A stretch of DNA of 46,234 nucleotides from a bacterium (lineage in GTDB: Bacteria > Patescibacteriota > Minisyncoccia > CAIUEV01). Both the position numbers and the translations under genes were made by a program. The notes under the pieces are model-generated. The model saw only the letters and a list, made by a program, of their open reading frames with translations. It had not been told where the DNA came from and did no database searches. Below, one piece after another: positions 6,886 to 43,340 of the stretch; positions within the stretch are counted from its first letter, which is position 1; each line of letters starts with the position of its first letter. Where the stretch lies: NCBI GenBank assembly GCA_021779255.1, contig JAJYBC010000002.1, positions 1 to 46,234 on the forward strand, in the 5' to 3' direction.

Positions 6886-7051
6886 GAAATAACTGATTAC
6901 GAATAAATTTAATAAAAACAAAAACAGACTTGATAATAAATCTAGTTACTTATATTAATAAGGGGAAATATCGTTTTCGTCAAAAAATTCGAGGAATAGT
7001 CTATAATTTTCCAGATTTATAGATAGCGTATATACTAAAACATAGTAATAG

Positions 7052-7139
7052 GCTTTTTTTGTCTGTAAAAATTTTTTTTGAGTGGAGAAGTCACCCTGCC
7101 GGGGGCACACTCAAAAAAAATTTTTACAGACAAAAAAGC
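7052..7139. repeat. long hairpin with a conserved GC-rich apical core (family 2, copy A)
   Basis: A 32-bp AT-rich stem with one bulge pairs 7052-7084 with 7108-7139. The loop is GAGAAGTCACCCTGCCGGGGGCA. The core GAAGTCACCCTGCCGGGGGCACACTC is identical over 26 nt to the reverse complement of 12064..12089. Confidence 0.85.
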
Positions 7140-7170
7140 TAAATATATTTTTTAATAAACGATTTTGAAA

Positions 7171-7718: not shown

Positions 7719-10196
7719 ATGTCCAAAGAAAATCTAAAAGAACGAGAGATTGTGCAGGAAATGGAAGAATCATATTTGGATTATGCCATGAGTGTTATTG
7801 TCTCCAGAGCTTTGCCGGACGTGCGTGATGGCTTAAAACCCGTTCATCGCCGTATTCTTTATGCTATGCATCGTCTCGGCTTAAGGCATAACGTTAAATA
7901 TCGCAAATCCGCCTTGGTAGTAGGAGACGTTTTGGGCAAGTACCATCCTCACGGCGATTCGGCTGTTTATGATACTCTAGTCAGAATGGCGCAGACTTTC
8001 TCTTTCCGCTATCCGTTGATTGACGGTCAAGGAAATTTCGGATCGATGGATGGTGATTTCGCTGCCGCTATGAGATATACAGAATGCCGTATGACTAAAT
8101 TGGCGGAAGAATTATTAACCGACATTGAAAAAGAAACTGTCGATTTTATGGATAACTATGATGCCAGTCGCAAAGAGCCTAAAGTTTTACCCGCCAGATT
8201 ACCCCAGTTGTTGCTTAATGGAACAATGGGCATTGCAGTGGGTATGGCTACGAATATCCCGCCTCATAATTTGGGGGAACTAGTTGATGCTTGTGTTTAT
8301 TTGTTGAAAAATCCAGAAGCAACGGTAGAAGATTTAATGGAGTTTGTTAAAGGTCCTGATTTTCCAACAGGAGGAACTATTTTTAATAAAAAAGACATTT
8401 TGCAGGCTTACGAAACAGGTAAAGGGCGAATTTTAACCAGAGCGGAAGCGGAAATTGAGGAAACCAAAAAAGGCCATCAAATTATTGTCAGAGAAATTAC
8501 TTATCAATCAAACAAGGCTCAAACAATTATCAAAATTGTTGAGTTGGTTAAATCGGGTAAACTGGAGGGTATTAAAGACATTCGCGACGAATCGGATAAA
8601 GACGGTGTAAGAATTGTTATCGAACTTAAACGAGACGCTCAACCGAATAAAATTTTGAATAAGTTGTATTTATTAACAGATTTACAGAAAGCTTTTAATG
8701 TCAATATGTTAGCTTTGGTAGATGGAATTCAACCTCGAGTGTTAGGTTTAATCGATGTTCTTAGCTATTTTTTAAAACATCGAAAAGAAGTAATTAAACG
8801 TCGTACCGAGTTTGAATTGCGAAAAGCTAAAGAGCGAATGCATATTTTGGAAGGATTGAAAAAGGCATTGGATTTTATTGATCAAGTGATTGCGACAATT
8901 AAGCAGTCGAAAACCAAAGAAGAAGCTCACCGGAATTTAATGAAAAAATTTGACTTTACGGATGTTCAGACTACGGCTATTTTGGAAATGAAATTACAAA
9001 CTTTGGCCGGTTTAGAGAGAAAGAAAATCGAAGATGAATTGGAAGAAAAACGAAAGTTGGTAGAAAAATTGGAAGCTATCTTAGCCTCAGAAATTTTATT
9101 GAAAGGAGTTATCGAAAAAGAGTTGTTAGAAGTTAAAAGTAGCTTTCCCAGCGAACGAAAAACCAAAGTAATGGCTCGAGGTATGAAAGATTTTTCGGCG
9201 GAGGATTTGATTCCACAGGAAGAAACTTTAGTCGTGGCTACCAAAAGCGGATATATCAAAAGAATGAATCCTAAATTATATCATTCGCAACATCGAGGTG
9301 GCAAAGGGGTGATTGGCGCTTCTCATAAAGAAGATGATACCATTAGCCATCTATTCATTACGGATACTCACGCTGACATCATGTTTTTTACCACTGCGGG
9401 ACGAGTTTTCCAATTAAAAACTTACGATATTCCGGAGTTTTCTCGTACGGCTAAAGGCCAAGCGCTGGTTAATTTTCTGAGTCTGGGCAGTCAAGAAAAA
9501 GTCTCAGCGATTATTGCCCTTTCCAACTTCAGTCAAGAATTGCCGAAATATTTTTTCTTTGTGACTAAAAAAGGAGTTATTAAAAAAACGGAAAAAATAG
9601 CTTTTGATTCGGTTAGACGAAGTGGCTTGATTGCTATTAAATTAAGACCAGACGATGAATTATGTTGGGTGAAAGGAAGCTCCGGCGAGAGCGAAGTGGT
9701 TTTAGTTTCTTCTTATGGCCAAGCTATTCGTTTTGACGAAAAAGAAGTAAGACCGATGGGGCGATCCGCTTCGGGAGTGCGAGGAATGAGACTTAAAAAT
9801 AGTGATTATATCGTGGGTATCAATATGCTTTCCGGTGGGGAAGAATCCAGTTTACTTTTAACCATTAGCGCTAATGGCATCGGTAAGTTTTCGGCTCTTA
9901 AAAATTATCGGAAACAAAAAAGAGGAGGCAGCGGCATTCGAACGATGAAAATTACTGAAAAAACCGGTCCTTTGGTCTTGGCGCGAATTATTTCTCGGGA
10001 AGCAAAAGAAAAAACGGATTTAATCCTAACTTCTCTTAAAGGACAAGTAATCAGAATGGCCGTCAAAGGGCTTTCTATCCTTAGCCGTAACACCCAAGGA
10101 GTGAGATTGATCAGACTGGGAGACGGAGATGAAGTGGCTTCAGGAGATGTCATTGAAACGGAAACGGAAATTAAATTGGATAATAAAAAAGTTTGA
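7719..10196 (+). CDS. gyrA: DNA gyrase subunit A
   Basis: [30 protein letters not shown]...[17 protein letters not shown]...AAMRYTE (catalytic Tyr region), plus a C-terminal beta-pinwheel region containing QHRGGKG, a GyrA-box-like motif. Confidence 0.95.
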
Positions 10197-11683: not shown

Positions 11684-11973
11684 AATTTTACAGGGGCGGG
11701 GTTATTACGCCCATCCGTAGGAGCGTATCGCGATACGCTCCTACCGGAATCCGCGATATTTTCTTGGTTAGAGGTGGTTCTATTCTCCGGCAGGGGATTT
11801 TTGATTTGTTCGATACTTTGAACCGGCGCATCTGGATTAATAATTTCGGGCTTGACGGGTAAAACTGTTTGGCCGAATTCGAGATCGCGACGGGCTTGAA
11901 GAAGACTTCTCTTGTCTTCTTCTTGATTATCGCCAGAAGTTAAATTTTCCGGTTGCTTTTCTAATGTTTCCAT
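11680..11973 (-). CDS. possible small acidic hypothetical protein (doubtful)
   Basis: A 97-aa ORF with no recognisable motif. Its 3-prime end reads through the 28-bp palindrome, and the opposite strand also has an ORF across the same palindrome, so it may be non-coding. Confidence 0.3.
   Translation of the reverse strand: METLEKQPENLTSGDNQEEDKRSLLQARRDLEFGQTVLPVKPEIINPDAPVQSIEQIKNPLPENRTTSNQENIADSGRSVSRYAPTDGRNNPAPVKF
11717..11744. repeat. perfect 28-bp palindrome GTAGGAGCGTATCGCGATACGCTCCTAC
   Basis: Verified by reverse-complementing the half-site. The centre is TCGCGA, as in family 1. It lies 34 nt after the stop of 10277..11683 and may act as a terminator or a REP-like element. Confidence 0.8.
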
Positions 11974-12035
11974 TTTTGTTATTTAAATATATAATAAAAG
12001 CAACTTGATTCTGTATGTTTTTAGTTTTTTTATTT

Positions 12036-12119
12036 GCGAATTTTTGGTAGTTTCCAATTGAGAGTGTGCCCCCGGCAGGGTGACTTCGCACTCGAAATTG
12101 AAAACTACCAAAAATTCGC
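12036..12119. repeat. long hairpin with a conserved GC-rich apical core (family 2, copy B, inverted core)
   Basis: A 31-position stem with 3 mismatches pairs 12036-12066 with 12089-12119. The loop is TGCCCCCGGCAGGGTGACTTCG. The stem sequence is unrelated to copy A while the core is conserved. Confidence 0.85.
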
Positions 12120-12158
12120 TAGAAACTAGAAACTTTTTTGAAATTATAAACTATTTTT

Positions 12159-13610: not shown

Positions 13611-14268
13611 TTCTATTTTCCGAGTTCGTCATTTTAAAGAGGCTAATCTCGGCAATTATTTAAAAGAACGGAGAATAAAAAAAAAGCTTAGTTTGGAGGA
13701 AATAGCTTCCGAATTGGCTATTAGTCGAAAATATTTGATGGCCTTGGAAGAAAATAATTTAGCTCTTTTGCCCCCCGAAGTTTATGTAAAAGGTTTTTTA
13801 CAACGTTACGCTAATTTTTTAGGGTTAGACGAGAACAAAGCTTTATTCCTTTTTGAAAAAAATCGTCAAAAAAGTAAACTGGTTAAATTTCCTCGAACTC
13901 GCTTACCGTTAATTAAAATAAAAAAATTAATTAATTATCGAAATTTGGTTTTTTTTGCGGTGGTTTTTTTGTTAGTTATTTTGGTGGCTTATTTAGTAAA
14001 AGTGATCGGACCGGTTTATCAAAATCCTTCTTTCGATTTGAAAAATCCTTCCAAGTGTCCTTTTGAATCGCAAGAAGGGTCTTTAAAAATCTCTGGTGAA
14101 ACTCAACCGGAAAGCAAAATTTGGATCAACGAAAAAGAAGTTGTAGTTGAAAAAAATGGTTATTTTGAATGTCTAGTTTTTCTTAATAAAGGAGAAAATC
14201 AAATTCAATTTAAAATTAAGAATAAATTTGGCAGAGAGAAGAAGAGCAACTGCTTGGTGAAATACTAA
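13603..14268 (+). CDS. RodZ-like HTH (XRE-type) membrane protein
   Basis: LGNYLKERRIKKKLSLEEIASELAISRKYLMALEENN...VYVKGFLQRYANFLGLD, followed by a single TM segment and an extracellular tail. It overlaps the upstream gene by 8 nt (ATGGATAA). Confidence 0.7.
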   Translation: MDNSIFRVRHFKEANLGNYLKERRIKKKLSLEEIASELAISRKYLMALEENNLALLPPEVYVKGFLQRYANFLGLDENKALFLFEKNRQKSKLVKFPRTRLPLIKIKKLINYRNLVFFAVVFLLVILVAYLVKVIGPVYQNPSFDLKNPSKCPFESQEGSLKISGETQPESKIWINEKEVVVEKNGYFECLVFLNKGENQIQFKIKNKFGREKKSNCLVKY

Positions 14269-14324
14269 GATAAATATCTAATTCATCTAATTTCTAATAA
14301 AAATGCAGAAAAAGAAGGAAAATA

Positions 14325-14408
14325 GAATTAAGAGATAAGAGATAGGAATTAAGAACAAATAGCCGGATTTTCTTCATTCTTATCTCCTAATTCTTATCTC
14401 TTTATTCC
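14325..14408. terminator. imperfect long hairpin between convergent genes
   Basis: GAATTAAGAGATAAGAGATAGGAATTAAGAA pairs imperfectly with TTCTTCATTCTTATCTCCTAATTCTTATCTC. It sits between the RodZ-like gene (+) and miaA (-) and overlaps the last codons of miaA. Confidence 0.3.
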
Positions 14409-33923: not shown

Positions 33924-33973
33924 AAGATAAATTTTTAATTCACCTAATTCAATTAATTTATTAGCTTATCCGA

Positions 33974-34046
33974 AATTTTTATGTATTTATTTCTAGGATC
34001 TTCTCGACAGGATGACTTGTCCACTAAAAATAAATACATAAAAATT
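33974..34046. repeat. hairpin with a family-2-related apical core (copy D)
   Basis: A perfect 19-bp AT stem pairs AATTTTTATGTATTTATTT (33974-33992) with AAATAAATACATAAAAATT (34028-34046). The loop contains CGACAGGATGACTTGTCCACT, matching the core reverse complement at about 18 of 22 positions. Confidence 0.75.
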
Positions 34047-34061
34047 GCAAATATCTATTGC

Positions 34062-36287: not shown

Positions 36288-36403
36288 TTGTGCGGATGAA
36301 TTTTGTATTGTTGTGCGGATGAATTTTGTATTGTTGTGCGGATGAATTTTGTATTGTTGTGCGGATGAATTTTGTATTGTTGTGCGGATGAATTTTGTAT
36401 TTG
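36288..36403. repeat. tandem array, 5 copies of the 23-bp unit TTGTGCGGATGAATTTTGTATTG
   Basis: Counted directly. Units start at 36288, 36311, 36334, 36357 and 36380; the last carries one extra T. Confidence 0.95.
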
Positions 36404-36412
36404 TATTATTGT

Positions 36413-36437
36413 AGAGACGGGTCTCAGACCCGTCTCT
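36413..36437. repeat. 25-bp palindrome AGAGACGGGTCTCAGACCCGTCTCT (left copy)
   Basis: An 11-bp GC-rich stem with a 3-nt centre, identical to the copy at 37027..37051. Confidence 0.95.
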
Positions 36438-36518
36438 TTTTATGTAATTAAAAAAAATTGAGGATTTTTTAATATTTTTTTTATTATTTTTTAATGATGT
36501 TTGGATTATAATTTAAAT

Positions 36519-37058
36519 ATGACCCAATTATTATTTCAAAATAAATATCGAATACCGTCCATTCGATTGAAAAAACACGATTATTCATTGTCGCGGTATT
36601 ATTTTATTACAATTTGTACTCACAATAAAAAATATATTTTGGGAAAAATTATGAATAATAAAATGAAATTATCATGGGTGGGAAAAATTATTAATACCGT
36701 TTGGAAAAATTTACCCAAATATTACTCCAATTGTGTTTTAGATGAGTTTGTAATTATGCCCAACCATATTCATGGTATTATTTATATTAAAAATACCTCT
36801 GGAAATAAAAAACATACATTGTCGGACATTGTCCGATCGTTTAAATCGTTTTCAACGCGGGAAATTAATCGCGTGCAAAAAACACCAAAAAATTTATTAT
36901 GGCAAACACGTTTTTATGAAAATATAGTCCGTGATGGAAATGCATTGGAATCAATCCGTCAATATATTCGGAACAATCCGTTAAAATGGTATCGCGATCG
37001 AAATAATTTTTATTTTGTTGAGAAAAAGAGACGGGTCTCAGACCCGTCTCTACAATAA
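36519..37058 (+). CDS. IS200/IS605-superfamily Y1 (HUH) transposase, REP-associated tyrosine transposase (RAYT)-like
   Basis: YFITICTHNKK..., HUH motif MPNHIHGII, SFKSFSTREIN, and the C-terminal LWQTRFYENIVRD...YIRNNPLKW carrying the candidate catalytic Tyr region. The last codons read through the right palindrome. The ATG at 36519 is preferred over the TTG at 36501. Confidence 0.8.
   Translation: MTQLLFQNKYRIPSIRLKKHDYSLSRYYFITICTHNKKYILGKIMNNKMKLSWVGKIINTVWKNLPKYYSNCVLDEFVIMPNHIHGIIYIKNTSGNKKHTLSDIVRSFKSFSTREINRVQKTPKNLLWQTRFYENIVRDGNALESIRQYIRNNPLKWYRDRNNFYFVEKKRRVSDPSLQ
37027..37051. repeat. 25-bp palindrome AGAGACGGGTCTCAGACCCGTCTCT (right copy)
   Basis: Identical to 36413..36437. It overlaps the 3-prime end of the transposase CDS. 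Confidence 0.95.
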
Positions 37059-37065
37059 TACAAAT

Positions 37066-37203
37066 ACAAAATTCATCCATACAACAATACAAAATTCATC
37101 CATACAATAATACAAAATTCATCCATACAATAATACAAAATTCATCCATACAATAATACAAAATTCATCCATACAATAATACAAAATTCATCCATACAAT
37201 AAT
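37066..37203. repeat. tandem array, 6 copies of the 23-bp unit ACAAAATTCATCCATACAATAAT (inverted relative to the left array)
   Basis: Units start at 37066, 37089, 37112, 37135, 37158 and 37181. They match the reverse complement of the left unit except for 2-3 fixed differences (CCATAC versus CCGCAC). Confidence 0.95.
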
Positions 37204-37251
37204 ACAAAAATACCTCCGTGTTCATGGGTTTTTAGACTGAGATGTCGAATC

Positions 37252-39459: not shown

Positions 39460-39492
39460 CCACTTCCCCCCCAGCAGGGTGACTTCTCCACT
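39460..39492. repeat. family-2 core, solo copy C (no long stem)
   Basis: CCACTTCCCCCCCAGCAGGGTGACTTCTCCACT. Its reverse complement shares GTGGAGAAGTCACCCTGC (18 nt) exactly with copy A. The right flank AAAATTGAAAA resembles the flank of copy B. Confidence 0.75.
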
Positions 39493-39625
39493 AAAAATTG
39501 AAAATTCTTTTTACTAACACTCTATAGAAAAAATATAATTTATAATAATTGTAAGAAATTAAATTTCTCTTTTATAATAAACGGAAATAACTTTTGACAT
39601 CATTATTTAATAATTTAACTGAAAA

Positions 39626-42600
39626 ATGAAAATAAAAAACAAAAAAAGACGAATCATAGGAGCTTCGATGGCTTTTTGGCTTTTGGGAGGTCAATCGTTT
39701 CTGGCTCTATTGACCATCTCGACCTTATTTTTTAGTGGGAGCTCTTTGGCTCAAGCTTTTTCTTTTGACCGAGCAACTTTTAAAGATTTTCGCTATAGTA
39801 CGGGGACTTTAAATTATTTGGAGAGGATTGATTTGAACAGTTTGGTTAATCAACCACTTAAAATACCGTTTACCAGTCAAAATCCGGAACAAATTCCGGG
39901 AGGCGATCAAGACTGGCTGATTGTTCATCCTCCGGTATTACTCAACCAAAATGCAACCATACCCCTAAGAGTTGATTATTTGTCTTCCGGTCCGGATATT
40001 AGTCGAGAAGATGCACAATTTGTGCAAGAAGTGGGAAATCAAATCAATACTATTGCTAATAATAATCCGGTATTGATTGAAATTGTCAAAAATTTGTTGG
40101 AAAGAAATTTACAAGTTTCCGTTAAAGATGAGTCAAGTTTACTATCTCTTCTTTTCCAGAAAGTTAAAGCGGCCGATACCACAGACAATTCACTTCTTTT
40201 AACGAGCAGTGAACAAAATTCCTTGGGCTTAACTAATTTAGACACAACCAATCCACAAGTCAGGCAGCTCCTAATGGTTATGTTTCTGTTGCTATTAAAT
40301 AATCGATCATTGGCCACGTCGGTTAATCTTGATGAAACGGATTGCGTGAACAGCGGAGGACAATGGGTTAACGGAGCTTGTCAAAACGAACAGACGACTC
40401 TTTGTCAAAATAATGGAGGAATTTGGAAAAAATTTACCAATCAATGTTTGGCTGATCGCCAATTTTGCACTAATTCCGGTTTAAGTTGTACCGGTGTAAC
40501 CAGCACTGATCCTTTTTACGGTTGCGCTTGCAAAACTGGTTCTTGTATCGACGAACAAGATGGTTCTTGTATTCCTCGCAGTGAGAGTAAGAGAGGTAAA
40601 TGTGAAGGATCAAAAGGAACTTGGCAAGAGAGACCTTCTTCCAAGGAAGTTTGTTTGCAACAATGTGATACGACCGAAGCTGATTGTGCCTCGGCTTCGA
40701 CTAGCGACTATACTCAAAGTTATGATTCTAATTTTTATAATAATGGAAATGATAATAGTTCGGCTAGTTTAACTTCGGCCGGTTGCAAATGCCCAGTTAA
40801 CAAATGTCTTTCCTCAGCGGGAGAATGTATCGCCAAGGATGTCTCTAAGTTAGACGACGATAAAGACGGAGTGAATAATACCAACGATCGTTGTCCTAAT
40901 ACGCCTGCTGGCGAAACGGCTAATAATGTCGAAGGAAACGTCAATCGAGGTTGCTCCTGTTCGCAGTTGCAATCGATGGGTAAAATTGCTCAACCCCAAT
41001 GTCCGCCCGACGGTTGCGAGAGCAACTATTTAGTGAAATATGATCGATCGGCTCTGAACAATATGGTTCTTTGCCAAAGTGGAGTTATTCAACAACAAAA
41101 TACTAATTCCAACAGCGCTTGCCCAGTTATTTCTCGTTATCCCGAGGCTCAATGCAATCAGAATAACAATCAAAATCAAAATCAAAATAGCAACTTGGAG
41201 GATTTGTTGAAAAAAATGATGCAAGATAAAAACAAAAAAAAGGATCAAGGCAAGCAAAACCAAGGCGGTGGCAACGGTGGTAATCAAGGTAATCCGTCTC
41301 AACAACAACAGCAGCAACAACCCCAAGGAAATACCAATAATAACAATGATCTCAGCACGCTAGTTAAAAAGCAAGAAACCGGCAACGATCCTTCAGGAGT
41401 GGGAGCAGTTAACGCCGAAATAGACCGAGGAAGCGCCAAAAAACCATTTATTCTGCACGTCAGTCAATTTACCAAGATTTGTAATAGCAATACCTATGTT
41501 TTGACCAATGCCAAAGCAGCGGTTGGCAAATTTCGTAATAAACCGGTCGATAATAAACAAGCAGCTAGTAGTGGCCCAAATAAATTTAAAGGTTGCGGCC
41601 CGCAAGGTTGTCCGGTTGACAAAAATGCCAGAGATCAGGCCAATAAAGTTATCGACAGTGTTAAGGACTGGTCGAAGTATTCCAAAGAAACGGTCGACAA
41701 GATTAACGAATTAGTTAAAACTGATAAACCGGATAATAATACAGCTCAAACGATCAATAATCTTCTTACCAACGGTGCCGCTTCCACCAGCACCGGTCCG
41801 CAATTAGGTGAAGCGGGAAGTATGTTGAATGTGGGCAATGGCGATGTTTATTTCAAAGTGCCGGAGTGTAAAGAACTGGCTTCTTGCCATTGCTGCGCTT
41901 GTGGTTGTTGCGAAAAAGGCAAACCGGACGGTCAATGTGGTTGGGCTTTAGGCAAAGATTGCAAGGAGGGCAAATGTACTGGTGCCGCTTGTTTACAAAA
42001 AACGGTGGATAAATGTCAGGAGAAACAGGAAACAACCATTCAGTTGGATTTTGGCACAGGGGATGTATTTAAATGCTCCAACGAAGGCAGTCAAGCCAAG
42101 ACTATTCAAGATAAATGTAAAACTTTTCAAGAAGATAAAGGTAAAAATTCTTTCCATAACGGTATTTGTAACTATGATTGTGGAGCGGCCAGTGTCGATC
42201 AAAATACCGGTTGTGGCGATAAAAAATACAGTGATTGTGAAATTATTATTCCCAGCGCTCAAAATAATCCGGTCAGATTTAACGTTAAAGGTTCTGAAGT
42301 TGTTGATAAAAATGACGGCGGTACAGCTAAGTTTACTAACCACGAAAAAGGTAGCTTATTGCAAGCCCAGCCTAATTCTTGGGCGGACGGTGGTTGGGTA
42401 AAAGAGCTGGAAGACAAAGAAGGCACTTGCTGCAAATGTATGGCGGAAAAAGACGTCAAACAGCCGGGAAATGCCAAACCGACTGATGATATTAAAAATG
42501 ATCCTTTATGGGACACTTGGGATGAAGGTGTTACACCACCTGTCAAAATTACACCCAATACGGTTCCGCCAATCGGTCAGGTGCCAAACGCCGGAACAAC

Positions 42601-43198: not shown

Positions 43199-43340
43199 TT
43201 CGAACTTTTTCAACTTTTTGAATTTCTTTTTCTCAGTATCTAAATTTTTTTATGGGGTTTGCTACGCAAAACATAAAAAAATTTAGATACTGAGAAAAAG
43301 TAGTTGCCAAAAATGGCAAAAAAAGTTGAAAAAGTTCGAA
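43199..43340. repeat. 142-nt nested perfect hairpin just upstream of the second giant gene (copy E, different apex)
   Basis: The outer 21-bp perfect stem pairs 43199-43219 with 43320-43340. The inner 29-bp perfect stem pairs 43226-43254 with 43272-43300. The apex is GGGTTTGCTACGCAAAA, and there is a side mini-hairpin TTGCCAAAAATGGCAA. It ends 33 nt before the ATG at 43374. Confidence 0.85.

Follow-up and report, generated by a model that had tools for sequence, protein, structure and literature searches.

A conserved GC-rich core on private, locus-specific hairpin stems defines a dispersed repeat family in one uncultured Moranbacteria population

The stretch of DNA analysed here (the window; 46,234 nucleotides) is a complete 46-kb contig of an uncultured member of the Patescibacteria (CPR) from mine-drainage metagenomes, and it carries a family of hairpins that share their tips and differ in their stems. 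The conserved unit is a GC-rich core of 31–33 nt, AGTG-TGCCCCCGGCAGGGTGACTTCTC-CACT, with a T-run on one border and an A-run on the other, and it occupies the exact dyad centre of an AT-rich inverted repeat of 22–34 bp that is private to each locus. The repeat is lineage-specific, dispersed and confined to one uncultured Moranbacteria (CPR/Patescibacteria) population, in which tens of copies are present. An identical tip on differing stems suggests that the stems are built locally as the tip spreads.

The hairpin reported at 7052-7139 in an earlier note on this DNA, here termed copy A, is real. Its two 30-nt arms (7055-7084 and 7108-7137) are 100% complementary and separated by 23 nt, and the pairing extends to 7052-7139 with one bulged T (34 bp including the bulge). 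The predicted RNA fold reaches -44 kcal/mol (z -8.6), which 0 of 200 shuffles equal, and the z values against shuffles for the two strands are -8.6 and -9.4. The assembled copies of the family, four in the window and two on L226, an adjoining contig of the same MAG, are as follows.

7052..7139, minus strand: copy A, whole hairpin with a 30/30-bp stem (fold z as above), in the divergent spacer between rpsB (6885, leftward) and a 172-aa gene (7171, rightward)/gyrA
7080..7112, minus strand: copy A core, GAGTG-GAGAAGTCACCCTGCCGGGGGCA-CACTC, 33 nt with a 5-bp terminal inverted repeat, reading GTGCCCCCGGCAGGGTGACTTC on the minus strand
12034..12121, plus strand: copy B, hairpin, in the divergent spacer between a 97-aa gene (11973, leftward) and the flippase gene (12159, rightward)
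12062-12093: copy B core, 32 nt, with one substitution and one deletion relative to copy A
33967..34053, plus strand: copy C, hairpin of a diverged single copy, between the co-directional pilC and pilin genes
39460..39505, plus strand: copy D, core remnant (26/31), in the divergent spacer between a 308-aa gene (39409, leftward) and a 1090-aa gene (39626, rightward)
L226 8034-8124: copy E, complete, with a 34-bp stem
L226 8761-8847: copy F, complete, with a 32-bp stem

The 26-mer GAAGTCACCCTGCCGGGGGCACACTC is present at exactly two sites, 7087-7112 on the plus strand and 12062-12087 on the minus strand, where none is expected by chance, so that the inverted, 26-nt identical recurrence of the apex described previously stands, shifted by 2 nt from the coordinates 12064..12089 first given for it. 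The stem of copy B (31 nt, 90%) differs from that of copy A, and its core is flanked on each side by an unpaired GA, as is the core of copy F. Copy C has a third distinct stem (30 nt, 87%), with arms paired at 21/24 positions, and its core (33993-34026) is 22/31 identical to that of copy A; a 19-nt motif is kept at 16/19 although the remaining core has decayed. At copy D, the motif (39460-39492) is present without a hairpin (fold z about -0.5), and its right flank is B-like, AAATTGAAAA, with the complementary left arm absent. The two diverged versions of the apex that had been proposed are thus both found, at 33993-34026 and 39460-39505, the latter as sequence only. A degenerate 18-mer matches copies A, C and D, with 0.14 matches expected.

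A chance palindrome is ruled out by the expectation for the 26-mer, by the shuffles and by simulation, since the window holds four hairpins with stems of at least 21 bp, compared with 0–1 in 40 simulations. An assembly artefact is likewise ruled out, because the same hairpins recur in ENA and NCBI contigs assembled independently, with a k-mer length (k=141) sufficient to bridge the entire hairpin, and likewise in the Logan contigs of four runs. The NCBI MAG contig DAIEJB010000053.1 (L127) begins inside hairpin A, its position 1 corresponding to about 7108 of the window, and Logan contigs break within the core. Such repeats fragment assemblies of this genome, and the family is therefore a practical source of assembly breaks in these MAGs.

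The cores of copies A, E and F are identical over the invariant AGTG...CACT portion (31/31 nt), and their arms are unrelated. With pairs counted by distance from the core, the adjacent arms pair at 24/24 positions in A and E and at 22/24 in F, where only two junction bases are unpaired, as compared with 21/24 in the copies with diverged cores, B and C. Across these 24 positions, a copy's own arms pair at 93% (112/120), whereas left arms set against the right arms of other copies pair at 44%, and at least two Watson–Crick pair types are found at 17 of the 24 stem positions. Stem perfection tracks core identity, and the core and arms thus look equal in age. Mismatches that can be read as G-U number four on one strand and two on the other, without a strand signal.

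The similarity of arms between copies (mean 14.1) lies close to that of the T-rich intergenic background (12.9), and the earlier description of the stems as completely different is upheld save for two related pairs of copies, P3 with P4 and B with P1. Within both pairs, a substitution or indel in one arm has its mirror image in the other. Whether a core is A-type or B-type does not follow from arm similarity. Copies B, P1 and D have arm sequence in common and different flanks, indicating that some arm sequence is able to travel with the core. The 5' arms contain more T than A in 11 of 12 cases (p=0.006), the reverse of the polarity of a terminator, and the junction of T-run, core and A-run is nearly universal among the copies. 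The T/A polarity of the surrounding spacer matches that of the arm in only 2 of 4 spacers and is insufficient alone as the source of arm polarity.

Read depth places the assembled copies within a much larger set. In run X1, depth over 7080-7118 is about 337x, with flanks at 8–9x, and the core is over-represented in all four mine-drainage runs, at about 40x flank depth. It appears in at least 14 contexts, as loose ends with many differing flanks in the four metagenomes, and because six loose ends are visible per run this catalogue is a lower bound. The metagenome copies cease to match copy A at about 7070-7076 and 7117-7122, limits that define the conserved unit as the T-run, GAGTG...CACTC and the A-run. 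Copy B resembles copy A in both depth and loose ends, whereas the depth over copy C is flat, indicating that close relatives of this variant are absent. In six more metagenome copies the left and right flanks are reverse-complementary over 15–25 nt, with pairing scores of 30–50 for a copy's own flanks and a cross-copy mean of 13.

Three contigs of the same MAG were reached via window proteins, namely L226, which adds 8.8 kb to the left of the window, L220, which adds 2.4 kb to the right (overlap 99.98% identical), and the separate contig L223. The idea put forward in the earlier note, of a repeat family with a conserved apex on unrelated, paired stems, is borne out by tens of copies, with E and F added to those of the window. 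Elsewhere, a scan of genome contigs with CCCCNGCAGGGTGACTTC returned, among the matches listed, only chance matches in GC-rich genomes, and two more specific core patterns had no match in 185,579 species-representative genomes. The JGI metagenome collection gave nine matches, all by chance and in coding DNA, and IMG/VR gave none. Nor was the family found in 430 kb of related CPR loci; the closest relatives are 'Candidatus Moraniibacteriota' MAGs, with 78% identity for GyrA and at most 72% for the flippase.

All six assembled copies are intergenic, and they occupy 4 of 6 spacers between divergent genes but 2 of 41 other spacers (Fisher p=0.0012; p=0.027 when spacer length is allowed for). Read as GTGCCCCCGGCAGGGTGACTTC, each of the six points to a gene start 23–167 nt away, the downstream genes being rpsB, the flippase gene, the pilin gene, the 1090-aa gene, murA and gatB. 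The proposal that every copy in this orientation lies upstream of a gene start is thus correct for 6/6 copies, but it is not significant as a rule, because only C and E, which lie in co-directional spacers, are informative. Promoter-like hexamers are located just upstream of copies A and B, and on this sequence evidence both hairpins could be transcribed. Compared with their orthologues in relatives, the spacers with A and B have an additional 57 and 54 nt, an excess that would approximate the core and one arm rather than the 88-nt hairpin, although with two cases and distant relatives this is a weak indication. Copy E is bracketed by a 20-nt direct repeat, 128 nt apart (chance expectation roughly 3%); copies A, B, C and F lack a visible target-site duplication, and the direct repeat is found at E alone.

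The spacer upstream of the flippase gene can be compared among relatives. In L209 (8160-8165) the hairpin is absent, representing the empty state, whereas L210, of the VGKB01 MAG, carries at the same spot (8003-8121) a 119-nt insertion consisting of a 114-nt hairpin, with a GC-rich centre of 43 nt, and a repeated ACTAT. In addition, L213 has an unrelated 54-nt hairpin (9911-9964) a few bases from this spot, and the window carries copy B there. This site, which lies about 13 nt downstream of a promoter-like -10 box, is a hot spot for insertion. With five copies in the MAG and arms conserved among them, the element of L210 is a classical MITE, and its centre varies by nested GC-rich modules; one of these, the 20-nt palindrome CCTGCCTGCCGGCAGGCAGA, is present in two MITE copies only, exactly in the loop of the inner hairpin. 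The clade thus has mobile hairpins as well as GC-rich modules that land in hairpin tips, and the transposition of a whole hairpin in a relative shows that transposase-driven movement exists there. The window family differs from these mobile hairpins in its private arms. Comparison of the arms and flanks of copy B with the spacers of L209, L210 and L213 gave no signal of an ancestral arm, the relatives being too distant, and at four other L209/L210 hairpin sites considered as filled/empty pairs the spacers do not align.

GC-rich palindromes of the form CCTGCC[TA]CCGGTAGGCAGG are located elsewhere in the same genome (L226 1037-1072; L223 555-585 and 2211-2272), inside TTTCTAA/TTAGAAA inverted repeats at gene ends. 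They nearly match the loop module of the VGKB01 MITE and have TCACC(C)TGCCGG in common with the family core, a short likeness of 11–12 nt by which these palindromes and the core may form a superfamily of apex modules.

We tentatively favour a mechanism in which the core spreads between loci while the stems are made, and kept symmetric, locally by template switching. The private stem would be neither carried along nor pre-existing; intrastrand template switching, occurring as the DNA is replicated, would form it upon arrival and maintain its symmetry. A nascent strand with a T-run at its end would pair with the A-run beside a donor copy and copy the core, then snap back on its own T-run and copy its own flank to produce the second arm, and finally rejoin the original template. 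The net gain per event would be the core and one arm, and copies would persist chiefly in the promoter-bearing spacers of divergent genes. On this basis we infer the mobility of the core, the origin of the arms by template switching and independence from a transposase; the module would be a tiny, non-autonomous repeat, probably selfish.

Several of the observations above are those predicted by template switching. In A, E and F the arms cannot have been co-transposed, since identical cores there stand on unrelated perfect stems, and perfect 30-bp palindromes that pre-existed at every locus are implausible, given that the orthologous spacers of relatives have none. The mirrored differences, indels included, are explained more simply by one templated copying event than by many independent compensatory mutations, while the junction of T-run, core and A-run and the excess of T over A in the arms are expected from switching guided by microhomology. 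The spacer excess of 57 and 54 nt would fit the gain of a core and one arm (n=2, weak), and the 20-nt direct repeat at copy E would fit an imprecise return to the template (n=1, weak). The mechanism also fits the absence of a cognate transposase. Indeed, template switching is known to homogenise and extend the arms of inverted repeats and to generate perfect stems in a single event (PMC7202029, PMC8794818, PMC13100816), and the hallmarks of such events, mirrored differences in homologous copies and locus-specific arms, are both seen here, which is compatible with the mechanism rather than proof of it. No empty site was found for any copy of the family, and without one the arrival of the core and the formation of the arms are both unobserved.

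A more novel formulation, which we consider possible but doubtful, describes the module either as a transposase-free copy-choice repeat that builds palindromes from the flank of its target or as an integrator into the tips of ssDNA hairpins. With copy choice, each arrival would amount to an inverted 'target duplication' of 25–35 nt that creates a new private hairpin, and insertions would fall preferentially between divergent promoters. The earlier note had posed two causes for the pattern, selection for structure and an element that inserts into or generates palindromes. The evidence leans towards the second, on account of the 31/31 cores on unrelated perfect stems, the tracking of core identity by stem perfection and the mirrored differences.

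Selection for structure is in our view unlikely, whether it acts on an RNA hairpin, located in 5' leaders or else intercistronic, or on an ssDNA signal. Under this reading the loop motif AGUGGAGAAGUCACCCUGC, or its complement, would be recognised by a protein, with pairing the sole requirement on the stems. Structured RNAs combine a conserved loop with covarying stems, whereas mobile hairpin elements show the opposite (PMC2800124), and the multiple pair types at 17/24 stem positions conform to the RNA pattern. The pairing (21/24) and motif (16/19) retained by copy C despite decay elsewhere hint at constraint rather than neutral decay, and they keep a functional RNA or ssDNA hairpin alive as a rival. 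The positions of the six copies 23–167 nt upstream of gene starts in one orientation, their enrichment in divergent spacers (Fisher p=0.0012) and the promoter-like sites that would permit transcription of A and B point in the same direction. However, absence of the family from all relatives and collections searched would be odd for a regulatory system, perfect stems of 30–34 bp with 31/31 cores suggest recent copying over long-term selection, copy D has no hairpin, and the downstream genes (rpsB, flippase, pilin, murA, gatB) are unrelated. The G-U mismatches, four versus two, also lack the strand signal of an RNA. Moreover, Rfam contains no match to the core, in agreement with the earlier note, in which it was not recognised as any known riboswitch or leader. 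At gathering thresholds the only Rfam match in the whole window is a tRNA-Ala, and a permissive scan of 6920-7170 returned only generic long-hairpin matches, such as miRNA precursors, and a Phe leader that scored 39.7 bits where the threshold is 55. The tRNA-Ala(UGC), at 1657-1731, lies inside the 5' end of the ORF of an NYN-domain protein (1653-2366); this gene probably starts downstream of the listed position, and another assembly calls a product of 163 aa.

A further reading, decidedly unlikely in our judgement, is that mobility is confined to the core, which would enter older AT-rich hairpins at their single-stranded tips. An HUH/Y1 enzyme could move it, for example one of the RAYT-like proteins whose genes lie 29 kb away and just beyond the window. 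The VGKB01 palindrome CCTGCCTGCCGGCAGGCAGA offers a precedent, since it is found in 2/5 MITE copies exactly in the CGCCGA..TCGGCG loop. The genome also has long hairpins without a core (43199-43340 and 14312-14407) and two genes for RAYT-like Y1 transposases, and the GA on either side of the B and F cores resembles a split loop. Yet such insertion needs perfect palindromes of 24–34 bp to pre-exist, and the orthologous spacers of relatives have none; nor would stems older than the core be expected to show perfection that tracks core identity. Terminators are the commonest natural hairpins, and the polarity of the family's stems is opposite to theirs. Finally, the hairpins that flank the two RAYT genes are different ones, which bear a GTAG tag and do not contain the core.

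The first of these genes and its surroundings are arranged as follows.

36519-37058: Y1/HUH transposase gene (Pfam Y1_Tnp match), with REP-associated tyrosine transposase as its best NCBIfam match (69 bits, short of the cut-off of 80)
36414-36436 and 37028-37050: GTAG+GAGACGGGTCTCAGACCCGTCTC hairpins flanking the gene, inverted
36288-36401: 23-nt tandem array, five units
37063-37209: 23-nt tandem array, 6.4 units, reverse complement, with 2–3 changes per unit

The region 36288-37209 constitutes a REPtron-like unit. A second paralogue (L220 131-649; 172 aa, 54% identical), about 2 kb past the right end of the window, has the same layout (L220 1-860), with a GTAG+AGACGCCCAATTCGGGCGTCTC hairpin and different tandem units, and a third copy of the AGACGCCCAATTCGGGCGTCTC hairpin lies inside its ORF (L220 408-434). 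Judged from their layout, both units look like REPtrons. The hairpins that flank the RAYT genes are low-copy and are not the family core; we set aside a link between RAYT and the core, to which the RAYT flanks lend no support.

It is highly unlikely that the family is a classical MITE, in which a transposase acting in trans would move the whole hairpin and the arms would diverge under selection for pairing. A relative does carry such an element, with the filled/empty pair L210/L209 and five copies in the MAG, and the arm sequence common to B, P1 and D on different flanks speaks for whole-hairpin movement. But A, E and F combine identical cores with unrelated arms, core type (A or B) does not follow arm similarity, the common terminal inverted repeat is just 4–5 bp, and target-site duplications are not seen at A, B, C and F. 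Conserved terminal inverted repeats, the mark of a MITE, are lacking, as only AGTG/CACT and the T/A runs are common to the copies. The lack of arms common between copies sets the family apart from a classical MITE. Over the 64 kb of this genome covered by the analysis, no autonomous element with the same ends was found.

An intrinsic (bidirectional) terminator, like the chance palindrome and the assembly artefact excluded above, is scarcely credible, since although the hairpins are long and intergenic and another hairpin of the window (14312-14407) lies between convergent genes, 4/6 copies lie between divergent genes with nothing to terminate, predictions place no terminator-like site at these hairpins, T prevails in the 5' arms of the AT-rich stems and A in their 3' arms, and the combination of a GC-rich stem, a short loop and a T-run downstream of a gene is not found.

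Other repeats and hairpins were observed in the window. The one at 43199-43340 is a composite, with a 34-bp inner stem, the loop GGGTTTGCTACGCAAAA and a 21-bp outer stem; it lies upstream of a large gene truncated by the contig end. It exists in multiple copies whose arms are conserved, and three further X1 contigs match 43211-43281 with 5–7 changes. The hairpin at 14312-14407 is long, AT-rich and coreless, lies between an HTH-domain gene (ending at 14268) and the convergent miaA (ending at 14394), and resembles a terminator in its position. At 11717-11744, within the 97-aa ORF, GTAG stands at both ends of a perfect 28-nt palindrome, GTAGGAGCGTATCGCGATACGCTCCTAC, and the same 34 nt recur in other, deeper contigs of all four runs; it may be a REP-like repeat within a gene. 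In the 1090-aa ORF, within 41118-41253, a 38-nt match (41156-41193) reaches a depth of about 187 versus 7 in X1, and its depth is high in all runs, marking it as repeated or widely shared sequence.

The family behaves like a selfish repeat of the REP, MITE or GC-cluster kind, yet it fails the membership tests of each. Like REPs and REPINs, it is short, extragenic, high-copy (about 40x depth, with all copies intergenic), hairpin-forming and non-coding (features compared from PMC3733652 and PMC3116915), its host has RAYT-like genes, and ssDNA hairpin biology is plausible. A REP is defined by a GTAG (or CGTC) tetranucleotide at one end of a short stem-loop (PMC3733652), whereas the core GAGTGGAGAAGTCACCCTGCCGGGGGCACACTC has neither GTAG/CTAC nor CGTC/GACG, consistent with the earlier note, in which it was not recognised as a REP. 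Neither RAYT gene is flanked by the core as in a REPtron, and with the tag missing and the RAYT genes carrying other hairpins, we reject a canonical REP. REPINs have a conserved stem and a varying loop or spacer; here the reverse is found, a conserved loop on private stems, and the family in addition favours divergent promoter spacers. The VGKB01 MITE (L210, L215-L219) is similar in its length of about 90–115 nt, its AT-rich arms, GC-rich centre and intergenic location, the two even sharing the spacer that precedes the flippase gene, but it keeps its arms in 5/5 copies and repeats ACTAT at the insertion, whereas the copies of the window family share the centre only.

The family also resembles the mitochondrial GC clusters and hairpin elements of yeast, other fungi and sponges, which are GC-rich mini-palindromes in the AT-rich spacers of a small genome. 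These clusters are thought to be mobile and nest inside one another, and we know of no enzyme for them. They differ in having conserved stems and variable loops (PMC2800124) and in being organellar, not bacterial. The hairpins produced by template switching (quasipalindrome correction) are alike in that one event makes or perfects a stem, changes are mirrored and arms are locus-specific. The known cases are single loci, and no dispersed conserved core that seeds tens of loci has been described (PMC7202029, PMC8794818, PMC13100816). A further likeness is to the origin hairpins of HUH-Rep proteins and to integron attC sites, the structure of which is read as single-stranded DNA. The former have a conserved loop on variable stems and the latter a conserved fold of variable sequence, and both are single functional sites with a cognate enzyme. 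By contrast, the present family has tens of chromosomal copies, and no cognate enzyme was found for it.

REPs, MITEs and organellar GC clusters are all common kinds of small palindromic repeat, and the spread of those that lack an enzyme is, to our knowledge, an old open question. The present family inverts the usual pattern, with identical centres on private perfect stems, and the origin of the stems is thus directly testable. In a streamlined CPR bacterium such as its host, selfish copies numbering in the tens are unexpected. Should the stems prove to arise by template switching, the family would represent a natural repeat that spreads through replication errors alone and creates new hairpins beside promoters, and it would show a de novo route to structured RNAs or regulatory hairpins.
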